A stretch of 32,000 nucleotides of DNA, taken from an uncultured Actinomycetes bacterium (lineage in GTDB: Bacteria; Actinomycetota; Actinomycetes; S36-B12; CAIYMF01). The stretch lies in contig CAWJMG010000003.1 in NCBI GenBank assembly GCA_963843975.1, positions 600,001 to 632,000 on the forward strand, read 5' to 3'. The notes under the pieces were generated by a model. It did not search any database, was not told the origin of the DNA, and saw nothing but the letters and a program-made list of their open reading frames with translations. Below, piece after piece: positions 11,751 through 31,357 of this stretch (the first letter of the stretch is position 1; each line of letters opens with the position of its first letter). Made by a program: the position numbers and the translations under genes.

Positions 11751-12509
11751 TCAGAGGGGAAGTCGACGGAACAGCGGACGCGGCACGTGCCGAAGCGCTG
11801 ACATCACGGGGCGCATCAGGCCCGGGGCGTACACGATCTCGCGACCCTTGGCGAGGCCTTCGACGACGGCGGCACCGACATCTTCGGCCGACACCGCGAG
11901 CGGCGCGTCCGGAAGGTGGGCCGTCATGCGCGTGCGGACGAATCCGGGTCGCACGACCATCGCCCGTGCACCGGAGCCGCGGAGCATCTCGACGATGCCG
12001 AGCCCGACGGCGTCCAGGCCCGCCTTCGTCGACCCGTAGACGAAGTTGGAGCGACGGGCACGCTCTCCGGCGACGCTGGACAGAACCACGAGAACTCCGT
12101 GCCGCTGCTGCCGCAACCGGGTCGCGACGTGCAGGGCCACGGACATCGACCCGACGTAGTTGACCTGTGCCGCGCGGACCGCGAGCGACGGGTCCGACTC
12201 GAACTCGCTCTGGTCGCCCAGCACCCCGGCAACCAGCAGGACGACGTCGATGTCGCCGGCGTCGAAGGCCTGCGCCACGAAGGCCTCGTGCGAGGAGGTG
12301 TCCGACGCGTCGAACTGCGCCGTCACGACTCCCGCGACCCCGGCACGGGTCAGGGATTCTGCCGCCGCGTCGAGCTCTGGAGACGGCCGCCCTGCCAGGA
12401 CGACGCGGGTGAGCGACTGCGGGTCCAGGGCGCGGACGGTGGCAAGACCGATCTCGCTGGTGCCACCGAGGACGAGGACGGACTGCGGGCGTCCGTGGGC
12501 ATCGATCAC
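11751..12509 (-). CDS. dprE2: Decaprenylphospho-2'-keto-ribose reductase (DprE2-type short-chain dehydrogenase)
   Basis: 252-aa SDR with LVLGGTSEIG (NAD(P) site) and the YGSTKAG catalytic motif. It lies directly downstream of dprE1 and is start/stop-coupled to it (GTGA at 12506-12509). Confidence 0.85.
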   Translation of the reverse strand: MIDAHGRPQSVLVLGGTSEIGLATVRALDPQSLTRVVLAGRPSPELDAAAESLTRAGVAGVVTAQFDASDTSSHEAFVAQAFDAGDIDVVLLVAGVLGDQSEFESDPSLAVRAAQVNYVGSMSVALHVATRLRQQRHGVLVVLSSVAGERARRSNFVYGSTKAGLDAVGLGIVEMLRGSGARAMVVRPGFVRTRMTAHLPDAPLAVSAEDVGAAVVEGLAKGREIVYAPGLMRPVMSALRHVPRPLFRRLPL

Positions 12510-13837
12510 AGGTCAAGCCTCCGGGAGAGATCCGAGGCGAGCACGCCCCGGGGGTCGGCGTCGCGCCTGACGGCCAGCCACTCGTCGAGGCGCGGGTACA
12601 TGGCCCGCAGGGTGGCGGGCGTCGTGCGGGCGTCCTTGGCGAGGTACGTGCGCCCGCCCGCCATGACCACCATCCGGTCGAGCGCGTCCAAGGTCGAGGC
12701 GAGCGCCGGCACCCGGGTCGGGACGTCGACGGCGAGGGTCCACCCGGCCAGCGGGAACGACAGCGCCGAGGCGTTGCCCTGGCCGAATCGCTTGAGGACG
12801 GTCAGGAACGACGGCGCACCGGCCGCGTGCAGACGCTGGAGGATCCGGGGCACGAGGTCTGCGGCCGCATCAGGCACGGCGCACTGGTACTGGACCAGTC
12901 CACCGGGTCCGTAGACGCGGTTCCAGTCGTCGACCCCGTCGAGCGGGTGGAAGAAGGCCCGCACCCCCTGGCGCTCTGCGTCGCGCGAACGGGGCGCCTT
13001 GCGGAACCAGGTCTCGTTGAAGGCCGCGACCGTGAGGCGGTTGACCAGGCCGAAGGGCGGCGTGAGGGGCACGCGCAGACGTGCCGGCGCCCCAACCGCG
13101 CCCGCAACGCCTGCCGTGGGCGCGTGGTCGCCCTGGGTGACCACACCTCGGCCGAGACGCGCCCCCGTCGCCGTGGCGTCGATCCACGCCACGGAGTAGC
13201 GGTGGGACGCGTCGGTGGCGACGAGGTGCGCCATGACGGCGTCGAGGCTGTCGAGCCGGCGGGTGTCGACGAGCACGTCGGTGGACGCCACCGCCAGGGC
13301 CCTGAAGGAGACCTCGGTCAGGACGCCCGTCAACCCCATGCCGCCGACGGTCGCGCGGAACAGGTCCAGGTCGGCGCCGGTCGAGGACGGCCCCACCCGA
13401 CGGATGCCCCCGGCCGGGGTGACGATCTCGAGGTCGACGACGTGGTCGCCGAACGAGCCGTCGTGATGGTGGTTCTTGCCGTGCACGTCCGCCGCGACGG
13501 CGCCGCCGACGGTGATGCGGCTGGTGCCCGGGGACACCGGCACGAAGAGCCCGTACGGCTCCAGGACGTCGATCACCTGGCCCAGGCGAGCGCCTGCTCC
13601 GCACCGCACGACGCCGTCGTCGCCGACCTCGACCCGTGCAAGGGCGGACAGGTCGAGCACGGTGCCGCCGGCGTTCTGCGCGGCGTCGCCGTACGACCTC
13701 CCGAGCCCCCGGGCCACCACGCCGCGCGGCGGCGCCTCGTCGAGGATGCGCGTGACGTCGGCTGCCGCCCGCACTGCGCGGACCTCCGCCGACGTGGGGC
13801 TCGTGCGCCCCCACCCGTGCAGCAGCTGCTCAGGCAC
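12506..13837 (-). CDS. dprE1: Decaprenylphosphoryl-beta-D-ribose 2'-oxidase (DprE1, FAD-dependent)
   Basis: The 443-aa product starts at GTG 13837 (VPEQLLHGWGRTSP...). It contains RGLGRSYGD and GGAVAADVHGKNHH. The C-terminus FGQGNASALSFPLAGWTLAVDVP...YLAKDARTTPATLRAMYPRLDEWLAVRR aligns residue for residue with the M. tuberculosis DprE1 C-terminus as I recall it. Confidence 0.9.
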   Translation of the reverse strand: MPEQLLHGWGRTSPTSAEVRAVRAAADVTRILDEAPPRGVVARGLGRSYGDAAQNAGGTVLDLSALARVEVGDDGVVRCGAGARLGQVIDVLEPYGLFVPVSPGTSRITVGGAVAADVHGKNHHHDGSFGDHVVDLEIVTPAGGIRRVGPSSTGADLDLFRATVGGMGLTGVLTEVSFRALAVASTDVLVDTRRLDSLDAVMAHLVATDASHRYSVAWIDATATGARLGRGVVTQGDHAPTAGVAGAVGAPARLRVPLTPPFGLVNRLTVAAFNETWFRKAPRSRDAERQGVRAFFHPLDGVDDWNRVYGPGGLVQYQCAVPDAAADLVPRILQRLHAAGAPSFLTVLKRFGQGNASALSFPLAGWTLAVDVPTRVPALASTLDALDRMVVMAGGRTYLAKDARTTPATLRAMYPRLDEWLAVRRDADPRGVLASDLSRRLDL

Positions 13838-14702
13838 CGCTGGCCGCCAACGCGAACGTGATCACCCAGAGCAGGGCGAGCACCTGGAGCGGGCGGTCGC
13901 GGAGAGCGACATCCTCCGGGGCCTCGGCGCGACCCGCGTCGATGTCCAGCGCGTACCGCAGCACCGCCAGCACGAAGGGTGCGACCGACCAGGCGGCCCA
14001 GGAGCCGTTGGCGCGGATGCCGACCTCGAACGCCCACAGGCAGTACGCCGTGATCGTGACAGCTGCAGCCAGTCCCCAGACGAACCTCAGGTAGCTCGGC
14101 GTGTAGCTGGACAGGCTCCGTCGCGCGGGCTCCGAACCCTCAGGCTGGGCCAGCAGCTCGGAGAACCGCTTGCCGGAGGCCATGAACAGGGAGCCGAACG
14201 CGGCGACGATGAGGAACCACTGCGACACCGGGATCCCGGTGGCGCTGCCGCCCGCGATCGCGCGGAGGAGGAACCCGGCCGAGAGCAGCGCCAGCTCGAG
14301 GACGGGCTCGTGCTTGAGCCGCGTGGAGTACGCCACCGTGGCGCCGAGGTACGCGGCCAGGACCCAGACCAGCTCGGGGCGCGTGAACCACCAGGCAAGA
14401 CCGAGCGCCAGCACGACCAGAGCGACAGCCGCGCCCAGCGCGACAGCGGGAGTGAGCGCACCTCGCGCCACCGCCCGATCGCGCTTCACCGGGTGCGCGC
14501 GGTCGGACTCGATGTCGAGCACGTCGTTCACGAGGTACGTCGCGCTGGAGACCAGGCAGAAGCAGACGACGGCGATCAGCGAGGGCCGCAGCACGTCGGG
14601 CTCGAGGAGGCGACCTGCCGCGAGCGGGACGGCGAGCACCAGGACGTTCTTGGCCCACTGGCGCGGACGCAGCGCGGAGAGCAGCGCCGTGGCCCTGCTC
14701 AT
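13830..14702 (-). CDS. ubiA: Decaprenyl-phosphate 5-phosphoribosyltransferase (UbiA superfamily, Rv3806c-like)
   Basis: ATG 14702 gives MSRATALLSALRPRQWAKNVLVLAVP... with the UbiA motif YLVNDVLDIESDRAHPVKRDRAVARG. The product is 290 aa and polytopic. Its start overlaps the upstream stop (ATGA 14699-14702) and its end overlaps the dprE1 start by 8 nt. The rest of track ORF 13830..16493 is artefact. Confidence 0.85.
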   Translation of the reverse strand: MSRATALLSALRPRQWAKNVLVLAVPLAAGRLLEPDVLRPSLIAVVCFCLVSSATYLVNDVLDIESDRAHPVKRDRAVARGALTPAVALGAAVALVVLALGLAWWFTRPELVWVLAAYLGATVAYSTRLKHEPVLELALLSAGFLLRAIAGGSATGIPVSQWFLIVAAFGSLFMASGKRFSELLAQPEGSEPARRSLSSYTPSYLRFVWGLAAAVTITAYCLWAFEVGIRANGSWAAWSVAPFVLAVLRYALDIDAGRAEAPEDVALRDRPLQVLALLWVITFALAASGA

Positions 14703-15901
14703 GCGTCCCCCTTCCGCCGTGCCCGCAGGACCGCTCCTGCCGACGTGAGCAGTGTCGCGGATGCGACGACGCACCAGGCGACCGACACGGGTGAGGTGCG
14801 ACCCACCGTCACCACGAGGACGACGAGCACGACGACCGCAGCCCACACCAGGACTGCGGCGCGCGGGTCGTCGGCGGCGAGGCGGTCGTACAGAACGAGG
14901 TAGGCGAGGGACAGCATGACGCCCGAGAGCACGAACACCGCGGCGGACGCGGCCACCACGTCGTAGCCCGGGCCGAGGAGCAGCGGAACCGCCCGGGCAC
15001 CGATCGCGGCGGCGACCGCGACCTCGACCGCTCCGAGACCGCACAGCAGCAGGAGCGCGCGCCTCAGCGCTCCGCGCTCGCCGTTCGCCAGGCGGGGGAA
15101 CACCGCGACCACCACGGCCTGCGGCAGCCAGAACGCGACCTTGGCGAGGATGGCACCGGCGGCGTACTGCCCTGCGTCCTCGGGGTTCAGGAGGGCGCGT
15201 GCCAGGAGGACGTCGATCGAGGTCAGGGTGAACATCGCGAGGAGGGCGAGGGCGGCGCGACCGGTCTCGGCAGCCATGGCACGCTCGACGGGTCCACGGG
15301 TCGGGTGAGCCACCGGGCCGAGCGGTCGCACGGCGAACCAGCCGGCGATCGAGCCGACCAGGATCGCGATCGCGGTGATCGTGACGCTGCGGGTGACCAC
15401 GACGGCCACGAGGGCGAGACCGCTGCGCAGCACGGCCGCGAGCGCGTACTGCGTCGACAGTGCTGCGAACCTCTCCGCACCCTGGGCGGTGCCGAGGGCG
15501 AGACCCGTGAGGGTCAACGGCACGAAGGCCAGCGCCAGCGCCGCGAGGGGCAGCAGACCGAGGTGCAGCACCACGGCGAGCACCGGCACGGCCACGAGGG
15601 CGAGCACCCCCTCGACCAACGCCGCGGCGAGCGCCACCCGGCCGAGTGCGGCTCCGTCGTCCCCCCGGGCAGCGCGGCGGGCCACGACCGCCTGGACGGC
15701 GAGGGAGACGACGTTGCCGATGAGCAGCACGTTGAGCAGCGCGCCCAGCTCTCCGAACGCTGCCGGGCCGAGGAGTCGGGCGCCGACCACGTTGACGGCG
15801 TATCCGAGCACCTGGCCGACGGCGAGACCGACCGCAAGCAGCGCGCTGCTGCCGAGCAGCGCGCGGTGCCGCCGGACGGACTGGTCGGACGACGCGCTCA
15901 C
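14699..15901 (-). CDS. Polysaccharide-biosynthesis / MOP-superfamily (Wzx-like) flippase
   Basis: GTG 15901 follows GGGGAG. The 400-aa product has about 12 hydrophobic segments. The N-terminus RALLGSSALLAVGLAVGQVLGYAVNVVGARLLGPAAFGELGALLNVLL is typical of Wzx/'polysaccharide biosynthesis protein' families. Confidence 0.7.
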   Translation of the reverse strand: MSASSDQSVRRHRALLGSSALLAVGLAVGQVLGYAVNVVGARLLGPAAFGELGALLNVLLIGNVVSLAVQAVVARRAARGDDGAALGRVALAAALVEGVLALVAVPVLAVVLHLGLLPLAALALAFVPLTLTGLALGTAQGAERFAALSTQYALAAVLRSGLALVAVVVTRSVTITAIAILVGSIAGWFAVRPLGPVAHPTRGPVERAMAAETGRAALALLAMFTLTSIDVLLARALLNPEDAGQYAAGAILAKVAFWLPQAVVVAVFPRLANGERGALRRALLLLCGLGAVEVAVAAAIGARAVPLLLGPGYDVVAASAAVFVLSGVMLSLAYLVLYDRLAADDPRAAVLVWAAVVVLVVLVVTVGRTSPVSVAWCVVASATLLTSAGAVLRARRKGDA

Positions 15902-15973
15902 GTTGCTCCCCGGTTCGTGGCTGACGGACGCGCCACAATAGGCCCGTCCACCCCGTCGAAGCCTGGAGGTCGC
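15902..15973. promoter_or_regulatory. Divergent promoter region between the flippase/DPA operon and the GT-C-like gene
   Basis: This 72-bp gap holds the only AT-rich patch nearby (ccACAATAgg, 15935-15940). On the minus strand it reads TATTGT, which fits the actinobacterial -10 pattern TAnnnT, about 30 nt upstream of GTG 15901. No convincing -35. Confidence 0.3.
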
Positions 15974-17719: not shown

Positions 17720-17748
17720 CTCCTCGCGACACAGGTGGGTCACGGCTC

Positions 17749-17776
17749 TTCCCTCTGGGCTACTGACTGGTAGTGT
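17749..17776 (+). promoter_or_regulatory. Candidate promoter for the small ORF
   Basis: TAGTGT (17771-17776) fits TAnnnT and lies in an AT-rich patch. A weak -35, TTCCCT (17749-17754), sits 16 nt upstream. This would give a leader of about 25 nt containing the GAGGAGGG Shine-Dalgarno. Confidence 0.3.
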
Positions 17777-17807
17777 TCGCGGCACTTGTCCTGAGGAGGG
17801 CCTTCTC

Positions 17808-17957
17808 GTGGGTGCTGGAATCATCGCTGCGATCATCGCGGCAGTCATCGGCGCGGTCGTCGGTGTCGGCGGCGCAGTCGGGCTTGTGGCCAGCCAGGGT
17901 GGCGGCAGCTTCCCCGAGCAGGTGCCGGGCGCGATCGTGGTCTACGGCACCAACTAG
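17808..17957 (+). CDS. Small membrane protein (49 aa), DUF2613-like. It is absent from the supplied ORF track.
   Basis: GAGGAGGG (17793-17800) lies 7 nt before GTG 17808. The product is VGAGIIAAIIAAVIGAVVGVGGAVGLVASQGGGSFPEQVPGAIVVYGTN, ending at TAG 17955-17957. It has one transmembrane helix and a short tail ending Y-G-T-N, resembling mycobacterial DUF2613 proteins as I recall them (...VEYGNR). Confidence 0.6.
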   Translation: MGAGIIAAIIAAVIGAVVGVGGAVGLVASQGGGSFPEQVPGAIVVYGTN

Positions 17958-17974
17958 GCGCCGACGCAGAGCTC

Positions 17975-18011
17975 GACGAGGCGGTCACCCCGATGGGGTG
18001 GCCGCCTCGTC
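17975..18011. terminator. Hairpin between the convergent small ORF and GT4 gene
   Basis: GACGAGGCGGTCACCCC (17975-17991), loop gat, GGGGTGGCCGCCTCGTC (17995-18011), with one G-U position. It overlaps the last codons of the minus-strand GT4 gene. Confidence 0.4.
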
Positions 18012-19238
18012 TGCGTCTGCGGCAGGGAGAGGGTGGTGCACGTGCGCCGGCGGAGCGGGCTCCACCGGGGCAGTGCGTCCGGTGGCTTCCGCGAGAACGG
18101 CGGCGAAGCGCCGGGCGGTCTCGTCCCAGCCGAAGGACTCGGCTCGTAGCGCGGCGGCGGCCCCGAGGCGGTGCCGCATGTCGTGCTCGGTGAGCAGCAG
18201 CGTCACCGCGTCGACGAACCCGTCCAGGTCGTCGACGAGGACACCGGTGCGGCCGTCCACGATCGACTCACGGACCCCGCCGGCGCTGCGGTAGGCGATC
18301 GTCGGGACGCCGTAGCCGGCAGCCTCCATGACGACGAGGCCCCAGCCCTCCTTGAGCGAGGGCAGCAGCATGAGCCACGACTCCGACACGTGCTGGTGCT
18401 TGGTGTCCTCGTCCACGAAGCCCACGAAGTCGACCATGTCCACCACCCCCAGCCGGGCGGCCTCCGTGCGCAGCTCGGGGGACCACCAGCCGTCGCCGAC
18501 GATGCGCAGCCGGAGGTCGGGGAACTGCGGGCGCAGGCGGGCGACCACCTGCAGAGCGTGCTCGACCTGCTTGTGCGGCACGAGCCGTCCCAGGACGATG
18601 AGAGTCGGCACCGCTGCCGGTGCCGGGGGGAGCCGTGGAGGCTCGATCCCGTTGCGCACCACCGTGATCGCGTCGGGTGCGACGCCGAGCACGGCCAGCT
18701 CGTCGCGGGTCACCTCCGACACGGCGACGTAGCGCGAGCGGCGGTACGCCCGCGGACCTACCCGCGATTCGAGGAACCACCCGATGCGCGAGCGCACAGG
18801 GCCGTAGACCACCGGCCACTGCTCGCGGTGGACGTGGTGCACGAGGTTGACGACCGGGACCCGAGTGGCCCAGGTAGAAGCCCAGGGGACACCGTTCTGG
18901 ACGTCGACGACGACATCGAAGCTGCCGAGGCGCCGCGCCAGCTGCAGAACGAACGCGGTCGGGTAGACGCCGAGCTTGCTGCCGCGACGCACATACCTCA
19001 CGCCGTCGCGGACCTCCTCCGCCGTGGATCCGGGGTAGCGCGCGCAGAGGACGGTGACGGCGTCGCCACCCGCGGCGAGCGCCTTGGCCACGCTCTCGAC
19101 GTAGACCTCCGAGCCCCCGCCCTCCGGATGCCGCGTGTCCCGCCAGTTGCACACGAGCACGCGCAGCGGCGTCGGCGACGTCGCTCCGGGGCCGGGGCGG
19201 TGGGGCACGGGGGCTCGCTCTGCTGGGGTGAAGATCAC
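17985..19238 (-). CDS. GT4-family (GT-B fold) glycosyltransferase
   Basis: 417-aa ORF with RVLVCNWRDTRHPEGGGSEVY at the N-terminus. The C-terminal motif is LLPSLKEGWGLVVMEAAGYGVPTIAYRSAGGVRESIVDGRTGVLV (E-x7-E type). The GTG 19238 start is uncertain and a downstream start is possible. Confidence 0.85.
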   Translation of the reverse strand: MIFTPAERAPVPHRPGPGATSPTPLRVLVCNWRDTRHPEGGGSEVYVESVAKALAAGGDAVTVLCARYPGSTAEEVRDGVRYVRRGSKLGVYPTAFVLQLARRLGSFDVVVDVQNGVPWASTWATRVPVVNLVHHVHREQWPVVYGPVRSRIGWFLESRVGPRAYRRSRYVAVSEVTRDELAVLGVAPDAITVVRNGIEPPRLPPAPAAVPTLIVLGRLVPHKQVEHALQVVARLRPQFPDLRLRIVGDGWWSPELRTEAARLGVVDMVDFVGFVDEDTKHQHVSESWLMLLPSLKEGWGLVVMEAAGYGVPTIAYRSAGGVRESIVDGRTGVLVDDLDGFVDAVTLLLTEHDMRHRLGAAAALRAESFGWDETARRFAAVLAEATGRTAPVEPAPPAHVHHPLPAADADEAATPSG

Positions 19239-19250
19239 GGGTGCGGCACG

Positions 19251-19272
19251 AAGGTTACTCGCGAGTCACCTT
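19251..19272. promoter_or_regulatory. 22-bp near-perfect palindrome (operator candidate) in the GT4 / methyltransferase-aftD divergent region
   Basis: AAGGTTACTCG|CGAGTCACCTT has 10 of 11 positions symmetric. It is AT-rich relative to its surroundings. It lies 12 nt from the GT4 start and 41 nt from the methyltransferase start. Confidence 0.45.
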
Positions 19273-23000: not shown

Positions 23001-24196
23001 TGGTGCTGCAGACCGAGCCGGACGTGGGTGCCTCCCGCCCGTTCCTGCTGACCGTGCAGGCCGGCGGACGCAGCATCGACACGGCGGTGGACGAGCAGGG
23101 GGCTGTGACGCTGCCCCCGATCACGACGTCGAGCATCACCATCACCTTCCGCGGTGCGACGTCGCTGCGCTCGATCGACCTGCAGCGAGGGATGAGCACG
23201 GTGCTCCCGGTCGGTGTCTCGGAGGTCCTCGTGCGCGGTGCGCTGGACCTCGGCCTCGGCGTGTCGAGGGAGGCGGCGACGGGTGTGGCCTGCGGCTTCG
23301 GTCCTGCGGTGGAGGTGGACGGCGCACCGGCGGTGCAGACGACCCTTCTCACGACGACCGGTTCGCTCCTGAACGGTCGGAGTCTGCGGGCCAACGCGTG
23401 CGGCGGGACGCTGCCGCTGCCGGCGGGCACGCACCGCATTCGCGTGCGGTCGACCCCGGAGCTTTCGGTGGTGTCCCTCGCGCTCACCCCGGTGGGCGCC
23501 GCGCGGACAGCCTCCGATGCCGAGCCGGCCGAGATCGTGCGATGGACGGCGACCGATCGCACGCTGCTCGTGACGCCGTTCCCCGAGGTCCGCACGCTCG
23601 AGCTGGCCGAGAACGCCAACAGGGGTTGGGTCGCCACCCTTGGGGGCGAGCCCCTGGCCGGCGTGGTGGTCGACGGGTGGCGCCAGGCGTTCGTGCTCCC
23701 GGCGGGGGCCGGAGGCGAGGTGGCCGTGGTGTTCGGGCCCGACCGCTTCTACCGGCTAGGGCTTGCCGGGGGCGCCGTGGCGGTCCTTGCGCTCCTCGTC
23801 CTGGTTGCCTGGCCCCGTCTCCGGCGCGAGGGCGTGACAGCCGTGCCAGCCTCTCGCCGGCCCATCTCCATCCTGCGGCTGCCCCCGGGCCTCATCGCGG
23901 CGACGACGGTCGCGATCGTCGTCGCCGGTGTCGCCGGAGTCGTCGTGGGCGCGCTGGCGCTGATCGCCGCTCGAAGCCGTCACCGGGTCCGCGCCGTGGC
24001 CCTGAGTGCGGTCACCGCATCGGTTCTGGCCGCAGCGGCCCCCTGGCCAGGCTCGCTGGACAGTCCCGTTCTGGTCCTGGCCGCGTCGCTGGTCGCCCTC
24101 TTCGCCGTGCTCGTGCTCGTGTGCCCCGCGGGCTGGGTCAGGCCCGGACGAGGTGCCGAAGCCGCGACGCCGGGCGCTCGACGATCCGCCAGCTGA
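20057..24196 (+). CDS. aftD: AftD-like alpha-(1->3)-arabinofuranosyltransferase (DUF3367 GT-C domain plus carbohydrate-binding modules), 1379 aa
   Basis: GTG 20057 gives VTRAVWRFRLLATCLALTAFAFLQDPGRVAADTKLDLTADPWGFLGRALHLWDDQGFFGQLQNQAYGYLFPMGPFF. This matches the recalled M. tuberculosis AftD N-terminus (DTKLDLTANP...QNQAYGYLFP). A large soluble region has discoidin-like signatures (DGDLTTAWQ, DRDPSTAWIA), and C-terminal transmembrane helices follow. Confidence 0.85.
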   Translation: MTRAVWRFRLLATCLALTAFAFLQDPGRVAADTKLDLTADPWGFLGRALHLWDDQGFFGQLQNQAYGYLFPMGPFFGVLTSAGLPAWVVQRIWWSVLLGAAFLGAVRLARLLGVDSPGARWVAGLAFALAPRVVSTLGPISSETLVVAITPWVLIPLVLATQGAPRWTPRRAAAVSAVAVLAAGGVNAVATGAALVLPFLWLMTRAGGPARRRLVLWWAGCVGLATLWWVVPLLTLGRYSPPFLDWIESASVTTGRTDVATALRGSDDWVAYVAGSGGPSWPAGWSLVTEPLLILLTGLVAAAGLTGLALVRRERRFLLLALLVGLVLTTLGHTGAVQGLGAPQLQQLLDGALAPLRNTHKFDVVMRLPLALGVGFVVAALGTRLSRLRRPRLTQAVARRTAVVVTGVLVVGAAWPLVTGSITRNRSYESIPGYWQDVADWLAADGEADGTALVVPGAPFGVYLWGRSQDEPLQPLSSTPWAVRDAVPLSSAGNIRLLDRVEARLASGRGSAGLTEALARAGVRYLVVRNDLDTVSAQAPRAILVHEAMDASPGITFERGFGPPIVPFGTGTTVVDARLDAAYSAVEVYRVTSPTEPGDGRAVVRDASDTVWSPTTTSDAVVDLADAGLLSGRAAVLGESAPDGVTTTPVLTDSYRRTEVDFGLVHDNRTAVLRADEEYVRARKAHDYGAGSLSVPVTSTLEGVEEVRASSSQSGVGALDGIVPGRSPRAALDGDLTTAWQVRDLASASPSWWETTFTAPRDLGSLQIAVLRDPVTGAGPTDVTVVTDTGSAQTAVADGEDLQTVAVPPGATRSLRVELTAASPAAGARVVGLREVLVPGVLTGAPLQLPRAAGSGGVVLTARDGARDGCASVPLRFPCGSALPREGEDEVGIDRLVDLADGGTYDVAVTVRQRSGSGAGRLQDPSRPAIRASASSVLVADARNRPQAAVDRDPSTAWIAAVGDVRPKLTLTLPEPRRITGLVLQTEPDVGASRPFLLTVQAGGRSIDTAVDEQGAVTLPPITTSSITITFRGATSLRSIDLQRGMSTVLPVGVSEVLVRGALDLGLGVSREAATGVACGFGPAVEVDGAPAVQTTLLTTTGSLLNGRSLRANACGGTLPLPAGTHRIRVRSTPELSVVSLALTPVGAARTASDAEPAEIVRWTATDRTLLVTPFPEVRTLELAENANRGWVATLGGEPLAGVVVDGWRQAFVLPAGAGGEVAVVFGPDRFYRLGLAGGAVAVLALLVLVAWPRLRREGVTAVPASRRPISILRLPPGLIAATTVAIVVAGVAGVVVGALALIAARSRHRVRAVALSAVTASVLAAAAPWPGSLDSPVLVLAASLVALFAVLVLVCPAGWVRPGRGAEAATPGARRSAS

Positions 24197-25316
24197 GTGC
24201 CGCGACGCCTGTCGAGCAGACGGCAGCAGCGGGGAGCAGCCACCAGGCGCCGCCCGTGAACGGGTCACGTCCGGTCACCTCGAGGAGCGTCCACACCACG
24301 GCCAGGTGCCAGAGGAAGATGCCGTAGGACCATCGGCCGAGCGCACGCCCCACCGTCGAGGTCAAGGCACGGTGCCAGCCGTCGTGACGGGTGCCGAGGA
24401 ACCCTGGTGCGAGGAATGCCACTGCTGCGGCCCCGTACAGGACGTGGCGTGCCACGACCGTCCACGCGGGGGACTGCTCCAGGGTGTAGCTGCCACCCAC
24501 CGGTGTTGCAGCGACGAGCAGGCAGGCCAGGGCGATGACGAGACAGGTCCCGGTGTCGTTCGCGAGCTCCAGCACGCGTCGGGTGGCCGGGCCCGGGGTC
24601 CCGAGGCGACGTCGCTCGTGCAGCACGGCGGCCGCCATCCCGAGCGCGAACCAGTCCAGGAACGCCGGCAGCCACAGGCCTGCACGCGGGTCGCTCACGA
24701 GGCCGACCGATCGCGCGACGGTGGTCGCGAGCCCGAGCGCGGCGACGCAGCCCAGCCCGACGAGCTGGGCACGCGCCGACCGGTCTGCGTCGCCGCGCCC
24801 GCGCCGCGTGACGAGCCAGGCCAGGGGCGGCAGCGCGAGGTAGAACGCGATCTCCGCTCCGAGGCTCCACGTGTGCGTGAGTCCTTCGACCAACGGATCG
24901 GGGGAGTAGGTCTGCAGGACGCCCAGGTGCACGAGCCAGGTCCGCAGCGGGTGCGGCCCCCCGGACGCCGGCAGCCAGAGCAGCACCACGACGACGAGCA
25001 CCCAGTAGGCCGGGAGGATCCGGATCGCGCGCCGCCACAGGTAGCCGGCCAGACGGGGCGGGCGACCCCCGGTCATCCCCGCCCGGGCCCACGGGCGGTA
25101 GAGCAGGAACCCCGACAGCAGGAAGAAGATCGTGACGCCCCAGTCGAGCCGCGAGGCGAATCGTCCGGCAGCGTTGAGCTGGACCCACCCGGTGAGGAAG
25201 GCGACGTGCGTCGTGAGCACGAGCAGCGCGGCGACGGCCCGGTAGCCGTCCAGCGCGGCGAGCCGATGCTCGGTCGGCGCTGGTGCGGCGAGCGGCGCGG
25301 TGCTCACGGTGGTCAC
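24138..25316 (-). CDS. Acyltransferase family 3 (OafA/YrhL-type) integral membrane O-acyltransferase
   Basis: 392 aa from GTG 25316 with RLAALDGYRAVAALLVLTTHV, FFLLSGFLL and RRAIRILPAYW, the hallmark acyl_transf_3 N-terminal motifs. Its start overlaps the upstream stop (GTGA 25313-25316). Confidence 0.85.
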   Translation of the reverse strand: MTTVSTAPLAAPAPTEHRLAALDGYRAVAALLVLTTHVAFLTGWVQLNAAGRFASRLDWGVTIFFLLSGFLLYRPWARAGMTGGRPPRLAGYLWRRAIRILPAYWVLVVVVLLWLPASGGPHPLRTWLVHLGVLQTYSPDPLVEGLTHTWSLGAEIAFYLALPPLAWLVTRRGRGDADRSARAQLVGLGCVAALGLATTVARSVGLVSDPRAGLWLPAFLDWFALGMAAAVLHERRRLGTPGPATRRVLELANDTGTCLVIALACLLVAATPVGGSYTLEQSPAWTVVARHVLYGAAAVAFLAPGFLGTRHDGWHRALTSTVGRALGRWSYGIFLWHLAVVWTLLEVTGRDPFTGGAWWLLPAAAVCSTGVAALSWRIVERPASRLRHLVRA

Positions 25317-27188
25317 GGTGCGGCAGCCTCGAGTGGTGCGGTCGTCGCCTGTCCCAGGCGCACCGTGCTGACGCAGACGGTGGCACCCGGAGACGTGGCC
25401 CGAAGCGTGACGGTGCGCCCGCCTCCGAGGATGCCGGTGTAGATGTCGTGCAGGCCTGGCTCCAGCGCGACCGTGCGCACCGGGTCGGCGCCCATGCTGA
25501 TCTCGAGCGATGTCGGGGCGGACGCGATGTACGCGATGTGCACCATGTGGTCGAACCGCACCACCTCAGTGCTCATACGCACCGAGGTCCCTGCGTCGCG
25601 AACGAGCCAGCCGCAGTCGGGGACCGGTCCGGGCACCGAGGCGGGCCCCTGCACGCGGCCGGGCACGACCTTGCCGAAGTCGTCGATCAGCAGCAGCTGG
25701 TCGACGGTGCCGGTGAACGTGGGGAGGTCCTCCTCGCCGGCGAAGAACCAGCTGTACTGGTTGAACGGGAAGACCAGCGCCCAGATCACGAACCCGGGGA
25801 CGCTGCCGTCCATGAAGTCCTTGTCGGGCCCCACGGTGCGCAGCTCGGTCAACGACGACTTGGCCCAGCGCGCCTCGGGCCCGTCGCCGAGCCCCGGTGC
25901 GAAGGCGACGACCGCGACCAGGAACGAGGCGATCTGGAGCTGGGCGAGCACGAGGGCGGAGATCGCAGCTGCCGTGCGACGTCGCGGCCGCCACTCCGTC
26001 AGCATCTCCGGCGCCGGGTCGTCGCGGAGCCGTGCCAGGGCGAGCGCCGACGCGATCACGGTGACGACGACCAGGTCGGAGTAGTAGCGGGGGAGGCTGG
26101 AGGTCTCGACCAGGAACTGGGCGCGACCGAGGTTGATCAGCAGCAGCACCAACGCGCCGTAGACGACGACCAGCAGCAGGGCTCGGCGGGCTCGCGGTCC
26201 GAACGTGGCCACGAACAGGCCGGCCGCGAGCACCACGACGCTCAGGACGAGGCCCACCCAGCCGGGCGTGGGAACGGCGTTGTAGCTGCTGAGCGCCGAG
26301 CCCCAGTCCCAGGGCCCCCCGAACAGCGAGGGCACGAAGGTGCCGATGAGGCCGGACGAGAGCTGATCGGCGAAGCGCGCGATGTTGGGTCCCGCCACGA
26401 CCGACGACGTCCCGTTGCTGCGGTAGGCGACGTACCAGCCGCCCAGCAGCGCCACCAGTCCGAGGAACAGCGGCCAGTGCAGGCGCAGGACGTGCAGCCC
26501 TGCCCTGACGACGTTGTGGACCGGGGTCACCGCGACGAGGAGGAGGGCCACGACCACGGGCAGCAGCACCGACTTCTCGAAGAAGCCGAGGGATGCCGCC
26601 GTCGCCCCGAGGATCCAGAAGTAGCTTCCCCAGCGTCGCCCGTGGCCGAGCCTCAGCGCGTGGTCCGCGACGATCAGCATGCAGGCGATGAAGGGGGTGG
26701 AGTTCAGGGCCGTCGCCCACCACACCGAGATCTGCACCACCGGGATGCTGGTGAGGAAGAGCACCAGTGGGACGAGCATCCGCCAGCGCAGTCCGACGTG
26801 CCGCACGAGGAAGCGGTACGCCATCACGGCGATCAGCGCCTGGCCGAGGGCCAGGGCCACGGCGATCCAGGCGTACTGGAAGCCGCCGAAGCTTCGAGAA
26901 CGGCTGGGCGACGACGAAGGACAGGGGCATGTAGTGCCCGCCCCAGGGTTGGAACACGTACTCCGGGTCGAGCCAGTCGAAGTGCGCGCCCTGGCCGCGG
27001 AACATGAAGTCGTCGGCGTAGTACCAGCCGCGCAGGCACAGCCAGGTGAGGATCGCGATCTGGGCGCCGACCATCGCGCGGGCCACCTGCCGGACGCGCG
27101 CCTGCGTCGGGTGCAGCGGGGTTTTCGCCCCCGCGCCCGCAGAACGGTCCGCGACCTTCGTGTGGGCAGGGGTGTGTACGGCTGTCAC
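25313..27188 (-). pseudogene. Polytopic membrane protein of unknown function (paralog B of the 27185..29002 gene), interrupted by one extra base near 26891
   Basis: The N-terminal 99 codons come from track ORF 25566..27230, starting at GTG 27188: VTAVHTPAH...AQIAILTWLCLRGWYYADDFMFRGQGAHFDWLDPEYVFQPWGGHYMPLSFVVAQPFSK. The next frame continues FGGFQYAWIAVALALGQALIAVMAYRF... (track ORF 25313..26860). The span is 1876 nt, which is 3n+1. The join aligns without a gap to paralog A. Confidence 0.75.
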
Positions 27189-29002
27189 GGCGCGATCACC
27201 GGCACTCCCACGGTGATGTCGTCGGTGCACACCGAGACGCCCGACGAGATGGACCCGATGCGCACGGCGTCGCCCCCACCGGTGAGGTTGAGGTCGACCT
27301 CGCCGAGGCCGCGGGAGATCGGGACCTCGACTCCCGGCGCATCACCGAACGAGACCATGGCGGTCCCGTTCCCCGAGGCGAAGTAGGTCATGCGGATCGT
27401 GTGCGCGAAGTCGGGAACGGCTGTCGCGAGCGGAACCGAGCCCGAGTCGCGGAGGAGCCAGCCGCAGCCCGGCACCGGGCCCTTGGCGCTGGCCACGCCC
27501 TGGACGATTCCCTGCCGGAGGCTGCCGTCGGCAGCGAGGACCCGCAGCTGCGTCGTGACGTCCGCGATGTCAGGGCGTGGTTCCAGAGGGGCGAGGAACC
27601 GACCGATGAGCTGGTACGGCGAGGAGAGCGGGGAGAGCACCGCCGGGGGCACGGCCTGGTCGAGCAGCGCCGGCCCCTCGGCCGCTGTCGCAAGCGAGTA
27701 CGTGGCTCCTCCGACGTACCCCCGGCCGTCGTTGGCCGACCAGACCGTCCGGTACCCCGACAACGACACCAGCGACGCGACGACGACCGCGCACACAGCG
27801 GTGACGGCGAGGGCAGGGCTCGCCAGGGACGGCACGTGGACTCCCCGGAGGTGCGCCAGGCCGCGGCGCGTGGGGCCGCGCAGGACCTGCAGCGCCATCC
27901 CGAGCGCCAGAGCGAGCGGCAGCCCGGCAGCGGCGGTGACGCGCAAGGTCTGGATGCTGTAGGCCGTCGTGGACGGGACAGGCGAAGCGAGCAGAGCCAG
28001 GCCGACGGTCAGCAGGAGCCAGGTGAAGGCCCAGACCCAGAGGGCGAGCGCACGACGGGAGAGCGCCGAGCTCGTCACCACGAGGACGAGGACGACCTGC
28101 AGGGCGGCGATCGTCCACCACAGGGGCGGGTTCGTCGCCGGCGTCTCAGGGGCGAGCGGCGCCCAGGTGAGCGGCCCGCCGACCAGGGCGCCGAGTCCGT
28201 CGCTGACGGCACGCCCGACAGCGTTCGCCCAGTCCTCGGCCTGCGGCCGCCCCGGATATGTCGTGGGCACGAGCACGATCCGGGCGACGACAGCCGCGGC
28301 GACCAGCGCAGTCGCCGCCGCCGCGAGGATGGTGACGGCACGCCGGCTCCGTCGCGCGCCTCCGGGATCGAGGACCGGGAGGACGGCCACGGCGAGGACC
28401 GGCACGAGCAGCGCCAGATCCCCGAACGGGCACACGAGGATCCAGACGATCGTGGCCAGGACCAGGGGCACCGTGGATCCGCGCCGCCACCAGGTGGTCC
28501 CGGCGAGCAGGAGCAGCAGGAGGCTGATCTGCGTCAGCGACGTGGGCACGCCCGAGGTCCACCAGGCGGACTGAGGCAGGGTGAGGGGCGAGAACGCGAG
28601 GAGCGTGACGGGGACGAGCGTCCACCAGGAGCCAGGCCACAGCCTGAGCATGAGGCGGGTGGCGAGCAGCACCACGAGGCACTGGAGACCGATCAGGATG
28701 AGCGACTGAGGAGTGAAGTTCATCGGCCACGCCCGCGACAGCGGCCACTGGAGCGCGGCCAGGCCGGGCGTGATGCCCGGGACCGGTGCCTGGAGCAGGT
28801 AGTCCTGGGTGAACGGCAGCTCCCAGCCGCGGATGCGCAGCACGTGGTCGGAGTCGTGGAACCACCCGCTGCCCAGCAGCCAGAACCTCACCACGACACC
28901 GAGGGCGGCGACGGTGATCGCACCGCGTCGCGGGTCCCAGTAGCGGGTGAGGAGGGTGCGCGCATCGGCGTGCGCCGACACCACGACCCCAGCGCTCGCC
29001 AT
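27185..29002 (-). CDS. Polytopic membrane protein of unknown function (paralog A), possibly GT-C-like
   Basis: ATG 29002 follows GGGGAGAA. The 605-aa product begins MASAGVVVSAHADARTLLTRYWDPRRGAITVAALGVVVRFWLLGSGWFHDSDHVL... and has many hydrophobic segments. A roughly 170-aa C-terminal domain contains GPVPGCGWLLRDSG and VSVCTDDITVG. Track ORF 27185..30163 upstream of 29002 is artefact. Confidence 0.75.
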   Translation of the reverse strand: MASAGVVVSAHADARTLLTRYWDPRRGAITVAALGVVVRFWLLGSGWFHDSDHVLRIRGWELPFTQDYLLQAPVPGITPGLAALQWPLSRAWPMNFTPQSLILIGLQCLVVLLATRLMLRLWPGSWWTLVPVTLLAFSPLTLPQSAWWTSGVPTSLTQISLLLLLLAGTTWWRRGSTVPLVLATIVWILVCPFGDLALLVPVLAVAVLPVLDPGGARRSRRAVTILAAAATALVAAAVVARIVLVPTTYPGRPQAEDWANAVGRAVSDGLGALVGGPLTWAPLAPETPATNPPLWWTIAALQVVLVLVVTSSALSRRALALWVWAFTWLLLTVGLALLASPVPSTTAYSIQTLRVTAAAGLPLALALGMALQVLRGPTRRGLAHLRGVHVPSLASPALAVTAVCAVVVASLVSLSGYRTVWSANDGRGYVGGATYSLATAAEGPALLDQAVPPAVLSPLSSPYQLIGRFLAPLEPRPDIADVTTQLRVLAADGSLRQGIVQGVASAKGPVPGCGWLLRDSGSVPLATAVPDFAHTIRMTYFASGNGTAMVSFGDAPGVEVPISRGLGEVDLNLTGGGDAVRIGSISSGVSVCTDDITVGVPVIAP

Positions 29003-29197
29003 GGTTCTCCCCGTGTCCTGTCTCCGATGTCCGGGTGATTGTGCCCCACGCCGCGGACCGGACCTGCCGACGCGCAGGTCGGGGGCGCGGCATGACGGAA
29101 CCGGTGTCGTTTTGTGACCTGCGTGTTTCGCCGTGATGCTGGTCAGGGAGGTTACTGTCCGGTACGTTCCGCGCGACACAACTCGCGGAGGTCCGGA

Positions 29198-30145
29198 ATG
29201 CGCCGAGGAATCGGTCTGGTGCTCGTCGCCCTCGGTGTGGCACTCCTGGTGCTGGCACCGATGGTCAAGTTCTACGCCGTCCCCAAGCTGGCGGTGGCGC
29301 CCCTCGACCTCGATCCGAAGTCGCCGAGCCTCAACGAGGGCGTTGCAGAGACGCTCCTCGACATCTCGACGCTCACCGAGCAGACCAACGTCCCCGTCAC
29401 CTCGACGCGGTTCACCACCGCTGACGTCGCCGCCTCGCAGGCCGCCGGCGGCAACATCGGCGTGTACGAGTCGTTCAGCCGCGTCAACCGTGCTGACGGC
29501 AGCCTCGTCACCGCGGGGACCGAGCGTTATGCGTTCGACCGCACCACGAACGTCATGACGACGGGGTCGAACGCCAACCTCGACGGTGAGCCGATCACGG
29601 ACGCGATGATCGCGGGCGACGCGATCATGCCGCTCAAGCTCCCCTTCTTCGTCGACAAGAACGCCGTCTACAACTACTTCGACACCTCGCTGCTGAAGGG
29701 CTACCCGCTGGCCTTCGTCGAGGAGACGCAGATCGACGGCCTCACGGTCTACAAGTTCGAGTCGAAGATCGAGCCGACCCAGATCGGTGAGCAGGAGGGC
29801 ATCGGCGAGAAGGTCGGCGGCACCGCGGACTTCGTGGCGCCCCGGTTCTACGCGAACGATCGCGTCGTCTTCGTCGAGCCCATCACCGGCCAGGTCGTGG
29901 ACGGTTACGAGGACCAGCTCCAGACCTTCCGCGGCCCTGATGGCACGGACAAGATCACGATCATCAAGGCCAAGATCGGCTTCACCGCGGAGAACAAGGC
30001 GACCGCCGTCTCCGACGCGAAGGCGAACTCCGCCAAGCTCGGGCTTCTCGCCAACACCGTTCCTGTGGTCGCCGCCGTCGCCGGTCTCGTCCTGCTGGTC
30101 ATCGGCATCCTGCTGATCCGTCGGCCGGACGGCACGGACGCCTAG
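29198..30145 (+). CDS. DUF3068 ('PorA-family') bitopic envelope protein
   Basis: ATG 29198 lies 6 nt after GGAGG (29187-29191). The product begins MRRGIGLVLVALGVALLVLAPMVKFYAVPKLAVAPLDLD..., the DUF3068 N-terminus as I recall it. A soluble central domain and a C-terminal transmembrane helix (VVAAVAGLVLLVIGILLI) complete the 315-aa protein. Confidence 0.7.
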   Translation: MRRGIGLVLVALGVALLVLAPMVKFYAVPKLAVAPLDLDPKSPSLNEGVAETLLDISTLTEQTNVPVTSTRFTTADVAASQAAGGNIGVYESFSRVNRADGSLVTAGTERYAFDRTTNVMTTGSNANLDGEPITDAMIAGDAIMPLKLPFFVDKNAVYNYFDTSLLKGYPLAFVEETQIDGLTVYKFESKIEPTQIGEQEGIGEKVGGTADFVAPRFYANDRVVFVEPITGQVVDGYEDQLQTFRGPDGTDKITIIKAKIGFTAENKATAVSDAKANSAKLGLLANTVPVVAAVAGLVLLVIGILLIRRPDGTDA

Positions 30146-30163
30146 CCAGCACCATCCGATCAC

Positions 30164-30202
30164 GACGCGAGGGCCCAGCCGTCACGGCTGGGCCCTCGCG
30201 TC
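30164..30202. terminator. Bidirectional terminator hairpin between convergent genes
   Basis: GACGCGAGGGCCCAGCC (30164-30180), loop gtcac, GGCTGGGCCCTCGCGTC (30186-30202), a perfect 17-bp stem. It lies between stop codons at 30145 (+) and 30209 (-). Confidence 0.65.
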
Positions 30203-30208
30203 TCGTCG

Positions 30209-31357
30209 TCAGGGAGCAAGGCCACCGACGTCGACGAACTCCGGCACCGAGGCGAGCGCGTCCCTCATCAGGACACGCGCTGAGGGCGACGTCCGGCTCA
30301 GCACCACGACCCCTGCAGCACCGGGGGGCGTAGCGACCAGCCCCGGCGCGTACGTGTACTCGGAGTCGGTCGAGGGGGACTGCAGCAGGACGCGCGACGT
30401 CCACGGTCCCCACGCGTGCGCGGAGGTGAGCGCAGCGACGTCCTCGTCGAGGAACTCCTCGGGCTTGGTCACGAGCAGGACGCCCGCGGCGGTCGCACGC
30501 GCTGCGAGAACCGTGGACACGCCGGCACGGAGGACCACCCGCGCGGCCGAGGGCGAGGGCGACCACCCGGTCGCGGTGCGGTAGGTCCAGGTGGCGGCGT
30601 CCGCCACGGTGGCGACGGGTGCCCTGGCGAGCAGAAGATCCCGGCCGAGCTCGCCGGCGTGCGGGCGGGTGCCGTAGATCCACACGTGGTCGCCGACCGG
30701 TGCGAATGCGGCGCCCCAGAGCACGTCCGACGCGGGCAGGTCGACGACGGGTCCGACCTGCGGCGCACCGTGGGAAGGAATCGTCAACGTCGCCGTCGCG
30801 GCGCCCACCCGGCGGAATCCGAAGGCGTCGCCACGGTCCACGGCGAGACGCTGGCCGAACACGACCACGGTCACCGGGTCATCCCCTCGGACGACCACGG
30901 AGTGCGTGGGCCACAGCCAGGTGCCGTCTCGGCCCGGGAGCGCGTCCTTCCCGGGCGACACGGAGGTCCAGCACCCACCGTCCGTGACAACCACGCTGTT
31001 GCGCAGCATGGCGGCATCGGGTCCTCGAACGCCGTCGTCGTCCACGGTGCCGGTGAAGGTGTCCCCGAACACCCAGAGCAGCCGACCGTCCGGCAGCCGT
31101 GTGCTGGACGCTCCGTCGCCGCCCGCCCAGTCCCCGTCCTGCGCACCGAACAGCCGACTCCATCCGGCGGCGTCGCTCGGCTCGTCGCCGCAGTCCTCGG
31201 TGGCGGTCGGCGCCGCGGTGGGGGCAGCACCGGTCATGGTCTGGGACGCCGCGGGGTGGGCGCCGCTCACGGAGTGCGGCGCGTACGACGACGGCGCACC
31301 TGCCCCCGCAGCGGCGACGAGGGCGAGGACGACCGGTCCGACCACGCCATGGAGCAC
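30209..31357 (-). CDS. Secreted beta-propeller-like glycoside-hydrolase-like protein (possibly DUF4185-type)
   Basis: 382 aa from GTG 31357 with a hydrophobic N-terminus VLHGVVGPVVLALVAAAGAGA and an Ala/Pro/Thr linker. Repeated blade-like segments follow (GGDGASSTRLPDGRLLWVFGDTFTG, NSVVVTDGG, GTWLWPTHSVVV, VWIYGTR, LLLARAPV...ATWTY). The family call is from memory only. Confidence 0.6.
   Translation of the reverse strand: MLHGVVGPVVLALVAAAGAGAPSSYAPHSVSGAHPAASQTMTGAAPTAAPTATEDCGDEPSDAAGWSRLFGAQDGDWAGGDGASSTRLPDGRLLWVFGDTFTGTVDDDGVRGPDAAMLRNSVVVTDGGCWTSVSPGKDALPGRDGTWLWPTHSVVVRGDDPVTVVVFGQRLAVDRGDAFGFRRVGAATATLTIPSHGAPQVGPVVDLPASDVLWGAAFAPVGDHVWIYGTRPHAGELGRDLLLARAPVATVADAATWTYRTATGWSPSPSAARVVLRAGVSTVLAARATAAGVLLVTKPEEFLDEDVAALTSAHAWGPWTSRVLLQSPSTDSEYTYAPGLVATPPGAAGVVVLSRTSPSARVLMRDALASVPEFVDVGGLAP

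Follow-up and report, generated by a model that had tools for sequence, protein, structure and literature searches.

A putative D-arabinofuranose glycan locus in an uncultured actinomycete joins an arabinose-donor operon to an AftD module and an unnamed family of membrane proteins

Here, we describe a block of 14 genes from an uncultured high-GC actinomycete, located at positions 11751 to 31357 of a 32,000-nucleotide stretch of contig CAWJMG010000003.1 (assembly GCA_963843975.1, positions 600,001 to 632,000; the whole stretch is hereafter called the window). We read this block as a cell envelope glycan locus, probably for the synthesis and remodeling of a D-arabinofuranose-containing glycan, and put the probability of this reading at about 0.62. 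An operon for the arabinose donor polyprenyl-phospho-D-arabinofuranose (DPA), wzx-ubiA-dprE1-dprE2, is found here next to a module centered on the arabinofuranosyltransferase homolog AftD and two paralogous membrane proteins, MemA and MemB, from a family without a name. Most of these parts are known, while their combination, the host lineage, and the Mem family are new. The core of the locus (MtrP, a family 4 glycosyltransferase [GT4], MmpA, Wzx, PgfA, TmaT, AftD, and a DUF2613-type peptide) is homologous, as judged from sequence, to the tmaT-aftD locus of Mycobacteriales, and the donor operon and Mem paralogues are lineage-specific additions.

At a window G+C content of 72%, raw lists of open reading frames (ORFs) were uninformative, and genes were called from third-position GC frame plots together with start-codon context. 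Nine of the gene products are identical to proteins that had been called separately on a 2.76-Mb public contig, and all 14 genes lie where a first-pass annotation, made from the letters alone, had placed them (Table 1); the limits of the block are the stop codon of dprE2 (11751) and the start of the DUF4185 gene (31357). The window DNA is also present in an assembly of run ERR12037365. The genes form three translationally coupled units, wzx-ubiA-dprE1-dprE2, methyltransferase-aftD, and memB-memA-AT3 (AT3, acyltransferase-3). Overlaps of 4 nt join wzx to ubiA (ATGA) and join dprE1 to dprE2, the methyltransferase gene to aftD, memB to memA, and memA to the AT3 gene (GTGA in all four cases), and ubiA overlaps dprE1 by 8 nt. 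The 3' ends of aftD and the AT3 gene overlap by 59 nt.

The arabinose-donor operon

Three products of the donor operon score above their NCBIfam cut-offs, namely, the decaprenyl-phosphate phosphoribosyltransferase (DPPR synthase) encoded by ubiA (NF008978, 367.7 bits; cut-off, 207), DprE2 (NF053786, 339.6 bits; cut-off, 250), and, as a marginal pass, DprE1 (NF053785, 507.6 bits; cut-off, 500). DprE2 is 85% identical to its counterpart in a related locus, L001. DprE1 aligns over its full length (residues 6 to 443) with DprE1 of Mycobacterium smegmatis (4aut, 369 bits), matches FAD_binding_4 at 77 bits, and retains the lysine of the AKD motif, equivalent to the catalytic lysine K418 of Mycobacterium tuberculosis. 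Near residue 370 it carries an alanine in place of the benzothiazinone-binding Cys387 (GWTLAVDVP, compared with GWNVCVDFP in M. smegmatis). This cysteine is typical of the family and dispensable for catalysis, and since natural variants with Ala or Ser at the same position occur in mycobacteria, its loss does not exclude membership in the DprE1 family. The substitution predicts that the enzyme would be naturally insensitive to benzothiazinones. We assign ubiA, dprE1, and dprE2 as genuine DPA pathway genes at the equivalog level, with DPA as the predicted product; the first-pass calls for these genes, as for aftD, were upheld.

DPA pathway homologs outside Mycobacteriales have already been described (PMC13110770). 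The mycobacterial pathway comprises Rv3806c, the phosphatase Rv3807c, Rv3790, Rv3791, and Rv3789; its three core enzymes are all encoded in the window, and dprE1 and dprE2 are adjacent and coupled in both systems. Unlike in mycobacteria, ubiA here shares one operon with the dprE genes, headed by a gene for a Wzx-type flippase, no aftA or emb gene follows dprE2, and the window contains neither an Rv3807c-like PAP2 protein nor an Rv3789/GtrA-like protein.

The Wzx-like protein itself has no Pfam or NCBIfam match, and 29 of its 62 homologs match PF01943 (Polysacc_synt). An AlphaFold2 (AF2) model built on the homologs (pLDDT, 94.1) was matched by Foldseek to WzxE (9g9n) with a TM score of 0.79, a root mean square deviation of 3.7 over 411 columns, and an E value of 4e-8; across the matches, TM scores were 0.77 to 0.79 for WzxE and 0.74 for MurJ. 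These results bear out the earlier description of the protein as Wzx-like. It is only 14% identical to WzxE, and its gene is coupled to that of a DPPR synthase and not to an O-antigen or enterobacterial common antigen cluster. Coupling of wzx to ubiA also occurs in L001, L010, and L011. A homolog with 37% identity occupies the same divergent place beside mmpA in Dietzia cinnamea (locus L005), which also carries a counterpart of the small peptide described below, and because both occur in the Dietzia locus, we assign the Wzx-type gene and the peptide to the putative ancestral AftD module.

AftD and the conserved core

AftD (1,379 amino acids [aa], close to the reported mean AftD length of 1,381 aa [10.1101/2019.12.22.885152]) matches PF11847 with 763.6 bits over residues 17 to 683 and CBM_AftD with 72.5 bits, and has predicted transmembrane (TM) helices between residues 1234 and 1356. 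Against the Mycobacterium abscessus AftD structure 6w98 it scores 610 bits over residues 10 to 1320. Residues corresponding to E251, D474, and E475 of the M. abscessus enzyme, which Tan et al. propose to be catalytic (10.1101/2019.12.22.885152), are conserved within the motifs FLDWIES and SQDEPLQ. We classify the protein at the family level as an arabinofuranosyltransferase that is predicted to be DPA dependent. AftD homologs have previously been reported in eleven other actinobacterial orders (10.1101/2019.12.22.885152).

The 581-aa protein encoded divergently from wzx had been described as a divergent GT-C-like protein. The candidate reading as an uncharacterized GT-C enzyme was rejected, as the protein is MmpA (NF053599, 430.4 bits; cut-off, 210), a member of the Rv0226c/NCgl2761 family, on which Cashmore et al. 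have reported (PMC8698533), and itself a distant relative of AftD. In a profile comparison of nine MmpA with eight AftD sequences (hhalign), MmpA aligned to the GT-C domain of AftD over 412 columns (probability, 97.8%; E value, 1e-12), a similarity that justifies the GT-C-like label. An invariant Asp of MmpA is aligned to D474 of AftD, and the region around E251 is a gap. In the literature on the tmaT locus, MmpA and one neighbor are also said to look like glycosyltransferases.

The PgfA-like protein matches PF11271 (214.9 bits) and NF053601 (203.3 bits; cut-off, 160), with TM anchors at residues 33 to 51 and 317 to 335. The 49-aa peptide had been called DUF2613-like, and this holds in part. 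Its match to PF11021 is below threshold (13.2 bits against 22.1; E value, 0.1), yet it aligns with the DUF2613 protein of Dietzia; the two have in common a TM helix and an invariant YG at the C-terminus. Positional orthologs of 47 to 48 aa were found in L004, L006, L010, and L011, and the one in L004 is itself weakly flagged as DUF2613.

The families MtrP, GT4, MmpA, PgfA/LmcA, TmaT-type AT3, AftD, and DUF2613 are those of the tmaT-aftD locus of Mycobacteriales (Corynebacterium glutamicum cgp_3161-3168/NCgl2759-2764; M. tuberculosis Rv0224c-Rv0228 plus Rv0236c/Rv0236A; D. cinnamea L005). In Dietzia, the order is MtrP, GT4, MmpA, divergent Wzx, PgfA, AT3, AftD, DUF2613, and, as there, mmpA and wzx of the window are divergent and the AT3 gene lies beside aftD. 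Identities to the syntenic Dietzia genes are 54% for the methyltransferase, 48% for GT4, 37% for AT3, 35% for AftD (over its full length), and 26% for PgfA. Unlike in the tmaT-aftD locus, wzx of the window is fused to the donor operon, two Mem paralogues lie between AT3 and pgfA and are coupled to AT3, and a GH183-like gene is appended; moreover, the published role of the tmaT-aftD locus (acetylation of trehalose monomycolate and mycolate export) depends on mycolates, and the host of the window is not expected to make these.

In C. glutamicum, aftD is part of the tmaT locus and lies next to the homologs of Rv0224c-Rv0228 (10.64898/2026.07.31.741767). This bears on the earlier proposal that two mycobacterial loci are merged in the window: the junction with the donor operon is new, and variable, whereas aftD already stood beside the Rv0224c-Rv0228 homologs in C. 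glutamicum and Dietzia. The tmaT locus has been studied since 2015 for the acetylation and export of trehalose mycolates; roles in trehalose-mycolate acetylation or transport have been published for TmaT, MtrP, MmpA, and PgfA, as has a physical complex of TmaT with AftD, so that the statement that the neighbors of aftD are largely of unknown function is outdated.

MemA and MemB

MemA and MemB, together with 68 relatives, had no Pfam or NCBIfam match except for one to PMT_2 at 3e-4, and sequence and profile searches with the family against the PDB gave no matches. An AF2 model of MemB (pLDDT, 91.9; pTM, 0.91) was compared by Foldseek with solved structures, among which EmbA and EmbB were the top matches, followed by STT3, PglB, ArnT, and AftB, with matches to carbohydrate-binding modules (CBMs) for the C-terminus. 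The probability of these matches was 1.0, but E values ranged from 7e-4 to 4e-2 and TM scores from 0.32 to 0.39. On the model and these Foldseek matches, we assign MemA and MemB a predicted GT-C fold with a CBM-like C-terminal domain.

With Emb, AftA, AftB, and AftC (GT53, GT85, GT89, and GT87), Mem proteins would have in common the GT-C fold, a first outer loop with an acidic motif, and a periplasmic domain of the carbohydrate-binding type at the C-terminus. Unlike Emb, MemA and MemB are much shorter (approximately 600 to 650 aa) and lack a match to the sequence family; in Pfam, NCBIfam, and profile tests, they were not members of the Emb, AftA, AftB, or AftC families. The earlier statement that no Emb- or AftA-like gene lies in the window is correct at the family level, and extends to AftB and AftC, yet it has to be qualified by the predicted GT-C fold of MemA and MemB, with EmbA and EmbB as the best solved matches.

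The family is large. Word-index searches with MemB, as a single sequence and as a 68-sequence profile, returned only two proteins; an exhaustive HMMER search recovered 2,357 cluster representatives, 893 of them below 1e-30, and nearly all of the 150 matches listed are 580 to 670 aa long. Across 68 members, an FYxDDF motif that comes after TM helix 1 is nearly invariant; it reads YYADDF in MemA. One relative is from Micromonospora acroterricola. Genes of the family are coupled to AT3 genes in five contexts (the window, L001, L006/L007, L008, and L013). In L008, from a metagenome-assembled genome (MAG) labeled Frankiales, they form an operon ubiA-dprE1-dprE2-mem-AT3 that is convergent with AftD, and the arrangement of PgfA, divergent mem-AT3, and convergent AftD recurs in L001, L006/L007, and L013. 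This genomic context supports a link of mem to arabinose.

As called, MemA is cut to 515 aa by a 1-nt insertion near 26890 (26885 to 26895; coding strand AAGCT[T]CGG). Another assembly of this sample encodes an intact MemA (P0131, 624 aa), whose GTG start overlaps the memB stop codon. We considered memA, and likewise the split polA described below, as pseudogenes and rejected this, since both breaks are single-base insertions and memA is intact in the second assembly.

As a separate observation, MemA and MemB (window 25313 to 29002) are 41% and 38% identical to their counterparts in L001 (15262 to 18878), where neighboring genes reach 73 to 88%. By these values memA and memB evolve fastest of all genes in the locus, which would fit either a diversifying glycan structure or pressure from phages.

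The DUF4185 protein

The last gene of the block encodes a protein with a signal-like N-terminus and a Pro/Ala/Thr-rich linker that had been called GH-like. It matches PF13810 with 43.1 bits (gathering threshold, 39.5; 45.1 bits for the L001 ortholog) and, separately, DUF5005. A sequence search with the protein matched no solved GH183 chain. It shares its Pfam family, over part of the profile, with the GH183 enzymes AraH1 and AraH2 (Rv1754c and Rv3707c). DUF4185 corresponds to CAZy family GH183, endo-D-arabinofuranases active on arabinogalactan and lipoarabinomannan (LAM) (PMC10115798).

Host lineage and related loci

A scan of genome collections with AftD returned two relatives, a MAG labeled Candidatus Nanopelagicales (AftD, 73% identity, with full synteny) and an error-rich MAG labeled "uncultured Actinomycetota"; eight further loci were reached via Wzx or Mem homologs. 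The gene order of the window is kept in L001, with protein identities of 73 to 88%, and occurs in rearranged form in nine other loci. In six of the eight further loci (L004 and L008 to L012) the AftD module adjoins polA, and several of these also have the 4HBT thioesterase, the GNAT protein, and the branched-chain amino acid ATP-binding cassette (ABC) transporter that are found in the window.

The relatives are labeled Nanopelagicales and Frankiales, which are not expected to be mycolate producers, and to judge from these affinities the host is placed outside Mycobacteriales. Identity to the Frankiales MAG is 44%, compared with the lower values given above for AftD, AT3, and PgfA of Mycobacteriales. 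The host is thus probably not an ordinary mycolate-producing member of Corynebacteriales; membership of that kind had been named as a finding that would undo the earlier interpretation.

These data also bear on an alternative in which the locus acts just as in Mycobacteriales, in the acetylation and export of trehalose mycolates, with AftD extending arabinogalactan and LAM; the host would then be an unrecognized mycolate producer, and the remaining pathway genes would lie in other parts of the genome. MmpA and the PgfA-like protein do pass NCBIfam equivalogs for trehalose-lipid delivery (430 and 203 bits), and the full gene set matches that of Dietzia, a mycolate producer, with phenotypes of the orthologs published. 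However, mycolic acids are, to our knowledge, confined to Mycobacteriales, the nearest genomes carry the labels Nanopelagicales and Frankiales, and identities to Mycobacteriales are low (26 to 37% for PgfA, AftD, and AT3) next to the 44% to the Frankiales MAG. In addition, no pks13, fadD32, mmpL, or Ag85 gene lies within the 32-kb window, and the gene order beside polA is common to an uncultured clade. We regard this alternative as improbable.

The distribution of the donor genes varies. The complete wzx-ubiA-dprE1-dprE2 operon is present in the window, L001, and L010, and wzx-ubiA alone in L011. We also considered that the donor operon beside the AftD module is a chance neighborhood of two unrelated units, in favor of which the donor genes are missing at the equivalent locus in four relatives. 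On the other side, AftD is DPA dependent by family; wzx of Dietzia, L009, and L012 belongs to the AftD module, but in the window, L001, L010, and L011 it is translationally coupled to ubiA; and L008 joins ubiA-dprE1-dprE2 to mem-AT3, an independent second union of the same units. The consolidation is real yet lineage specific and has arisen in two different ways, which points to function rather than accident, and we hold a chance neighborhood to be very improbable.

Glycosyltransferase content of the module also varies between lineages, as L004 shows (4066 to 7959), where GT4 and a methyltransferase domain form one 639-aa protein, and where a GT2 gene and an additional GT4 gene lie between it and the DUF2613-like ORF. 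In L006 (4317 to 8660) and L007 (121 to 4463), a 765-aa GDSL-lipase/CW_binding_2 protein and an Acyl_transf_3-SGNH O-acyltransferase are encoded beside PgfA, and represent more acylation and deacylation machinery on the same module.

Proposed pathway

In the arabinofuranose-glycan reading, enzymes of the wzx-ubiA-dprE1-dprE2 operon would turn polyprenyl phosphate and phosphoribosyl pyrophosphate into DPA, as their equivalog-level assignments predict. The Wzx-type flippase may then move a polyprenyl-linked intermediate outward; candidates are decaprenylphosphoribose (DPR), DPA, and a lipid-linked acceptor that GT4 would synthesize. Outside the membrane, up to four proteins of GT-C fold (AftD, MemA, MemB, and possibly MmpA) would use DPA; folds and catalytic residues underlie this step, with donor and acceptor as predictions, and MemA and MemB may fill the roles of the mycobacterial Emb, AftA, AftB, and AftC. 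The conserved gene coupling and the published TmaT-AftD complex suggest that the TmaT-like AT3, together with AftD and Mem, O-acylates the glycan or a glycolipid, with MtrP, PgfA, and the DUF2613-type peptide as probable accessory factors. Finally, the secreted GH183-type enzyme may trim the arabinan.

D-arabinose in the envelope of the source organism is a prediction from its genes, and several observations weigh against the arabinofuranose-glycan reading. In Mycobacteriales, TmaT, MtrP, and MmpA give mycolate-transport phenotypes and not arabinan phenotypes. In L002, L004, L009, and L012, the equivalent locus lacks the donor genes, and hence the physical linkage of donor genes and AftD is not obligatory. 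As for MemA and MemB, hhalign detected no profile similarity of Mem to AftD or MmpA, and the loop motif of MemB is DSD (FHDSDH) instead of DD. The match of the putative arabinan-trimming enzyme to DUF4185 spans only profile positions 165 to 284 of 309. Family scans of the window proteins also found no acceptor-priming enzyme such as an initiating phosphoglycosyl transferase, no galactan genes, no DPPR phosphatase, no GtrA-like protein, no polymerase, and no ligase, and the description of the block as a self-contained module is therefore not supported.

The glycan need not be a wall polysaccharide. DPA and the GT-C enzymes could instead decorate a secondary metabolite, a lipoglycan of the lipomannan (LM)/LAM type, or, as in Pseudomonas aeruginosa PA7, pili or surface proteins. 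DPA-dependent membrane glycosyltransferases have been proposed for the arabinosylation of actinomycete natural products (PMC13110770), LmcA of C. glutamicum, a PgfA homolog, affects LM/LAM, GT4 of the window resembles cytoplasmic lipid-primer glycosyltransferases, and the window has no galactan genes. However, the window family scans found no nonribosomal peptide or polyketide synthase cluster or pilin gene nearby, the locus lies among housekeeping genes and is conserved over a broad clade, and the several CBMs of AftD and the CBM-like domain of MemB fit polymer substrates. Decoration of this kind seems unlikely to us, if less so than either of the alternatives weighed above, and we prefer a locus for an envelope D-arabinofuranose glycan.

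A further-reaching version of the preferred reading joins its parts, and is offered as a tentative and rather doubtful proposal. AftD, TmaT, MmpA, MtrP, PgfA, and Wzx would form an ancient actinomycete machine for arabinan assembly and acylation that predates mycolic acids and is fed by adjacent DPA synthesis in a mycolate-free lineage, Mem proteins would be widespread DPA-dependent arabinofuranosyltransferases that replace Emb and AftA to AftC, and the ubiA-coupled Wzx would be the flippase for DPA or DPR. If this were true, a glycan function would come first, and the mycolate-export phenotypes of tmaT, mmpA, and mtrP mutants of Corynebacterium and Mycobacterium would be secondary to it.

Significance

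For M. tuberculosis, TmaT, MmpA, MtrP, PgfA, and AftD are essential proteins, currently interpreted as a link between arabinan synthesis and mycolate export. The whole module is present here in lineages from which mycolates are not expected, and this amounts to a natural experiment on its mycolate-independent core function. In addition, the Wzx-type protein emerges as a candidate flippase for DPA or DPR, and Mem, with approximately 2,400 sequence clusters, as a candidate new family of arabinofuranosyltransferases. The findings also suggest that polymers of the D-arabinan type are more widespread in environmental actinomycetes than the wall chemotyping of cultured strains indicates.

Gene map and neighboring genes

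Table 1. Genes of the block, in window coordinates, with two genes just outside its limits
Gene or product	Position	Strand	Evidence and remarks
Lipoprotein, alpha/beta-hydrolase-like, ~490 aa	10222-11727	+	LLAGC lipobox; weak Hydrolase_4 and Peptidase_S9 matches; just outside the block
dprE2, decaprenylphospho-2-keto-ribose reductase (short-chain dehydrogenase/reductase)	11751-12509	-	NF053786 equivalog and adh_short; last gene of the donor operon
dprE1, decaprenylphosphoribose 2'-oxidase (FAD)	12506-13837	-	NF053785, FAD_binding_4, ALO
ubiA, decaprenyl-phosphate phosphoribosyltransferase (DPPR synthase, Rv3806c type)	13830-14702	-	NF008978, PF01040
wzx, predicted MOP-superfamily flippase for lipid-linked sugars	14699-15901	-	AF2 model and Foldseek; heads the donor operon and diverges from mmpA
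MmpA (Rv0226c/NCgl2761 family), 581 aa	15974-17719	+	NF053599; 10 TM helices and periplasmic domain, degenerate GT-C fold
49-aa single-TM peptide, DUF2613-like (Rv0236A type)	17808-17957	+	Strong Shine-Dalgarno sequence GAGGAGG; positional orthologs
GT4 (GT-B), cytoplasmic glycosyltransferase, counterpart of the tmaT-locus GT4	17985-19238	-	Glycos_transf_1 (117 bits), Glyco_transf_4
MtrP-like S-adenosylmethionine (SAM) methyltransferase	19314-20060	+	Methyltransf_11 (65 bits); coupled to aftD
AftD, predicted GT-C arabinofuranosyltransferase with periplasmic CBMs and C-terminal TM bundle	20057-24196	+	PF11847, CBM_AftD
TmaT-like acyltransferase-3 (AT3), membrane O-acyltransferase	24138-25316	-	PF01757 (91.8 bits); last gene of memB-memA-AT3
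memA, membrane protein of predicted GT-C fold, C-terminal beta-sandwich, paralogue of memB	25313-27188	-	Family hidden Markov model (508 bits); frame broken
memB, membrane protein of predicted GT-C fold (~10 TM helices), C-terminal CBM-like beta-sandwich	27185-29002	-	AF2 model and Foldseek
PgfA/LmcA-like (DUF3068/PorA) periplasmic protein	29114-30145	+	PF11271, NF053601
Secreted DUF4185/GH183-type beta-propeller, candidate endo-D-arabinofuranase	30209-31357	-	PF13810, DUF5005
Second SAM methyltransferase, cut by the window end	31438-32000	-	In L001 and L002, orthologs follow the DUF4185 gene; in L006, they occur close to the module

The window gave no matches when scanned for Rfam families and tRNA genes. 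Two genes directly flanking the block may be associated with it. In the closer relatives, polA and the donor operon (or ubiA) are always separated by the lipoprotein gene (L001, 3 to 1259; L010, 14174 to 15625; L011, 12181 to 13656), which occupies the corresponding position in L002 as well. Its product may act as an esterase within the envelope module and be an associate of the donor operon. The methyltransferase gene at the end of the window may also belong to the locus.

Upstream of the block, polA (window 7493 to 10190, plus strand) is split over two frames by a break near 8988 to 8992 with an extra base (GAGCT[T]CCCG), such that the 5'-3' exonuclease part lies in one frame and the polymerase domain (9006 to 10190) in the other. 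In the relatives, polA is intact and encodes approximately 900 aa, and the break is probably an assembly error. The same AGCT(T)C context is found at the breaks in memA and polA. At the start of the window (3 to 873, plus strand), the periplasmic binding protein of a branched-chain amino acid transporter is likewise split, as the N-terminal part of its ANF_receptor/Peripla_BP_6 match falls in ORF 3 to 608 and the C-terminal part in a second ORF, 466 to 873, that overlaps the first; this suggests a third frameshift. Finally, at 4000 to 5451 (minus strand), we observe an ABC permease of the LivH/LivM type with an N-terminal beta-sandwich resembling CarboxypepD_reg and SdrD_B, an unusual fusion that is also present in L010.

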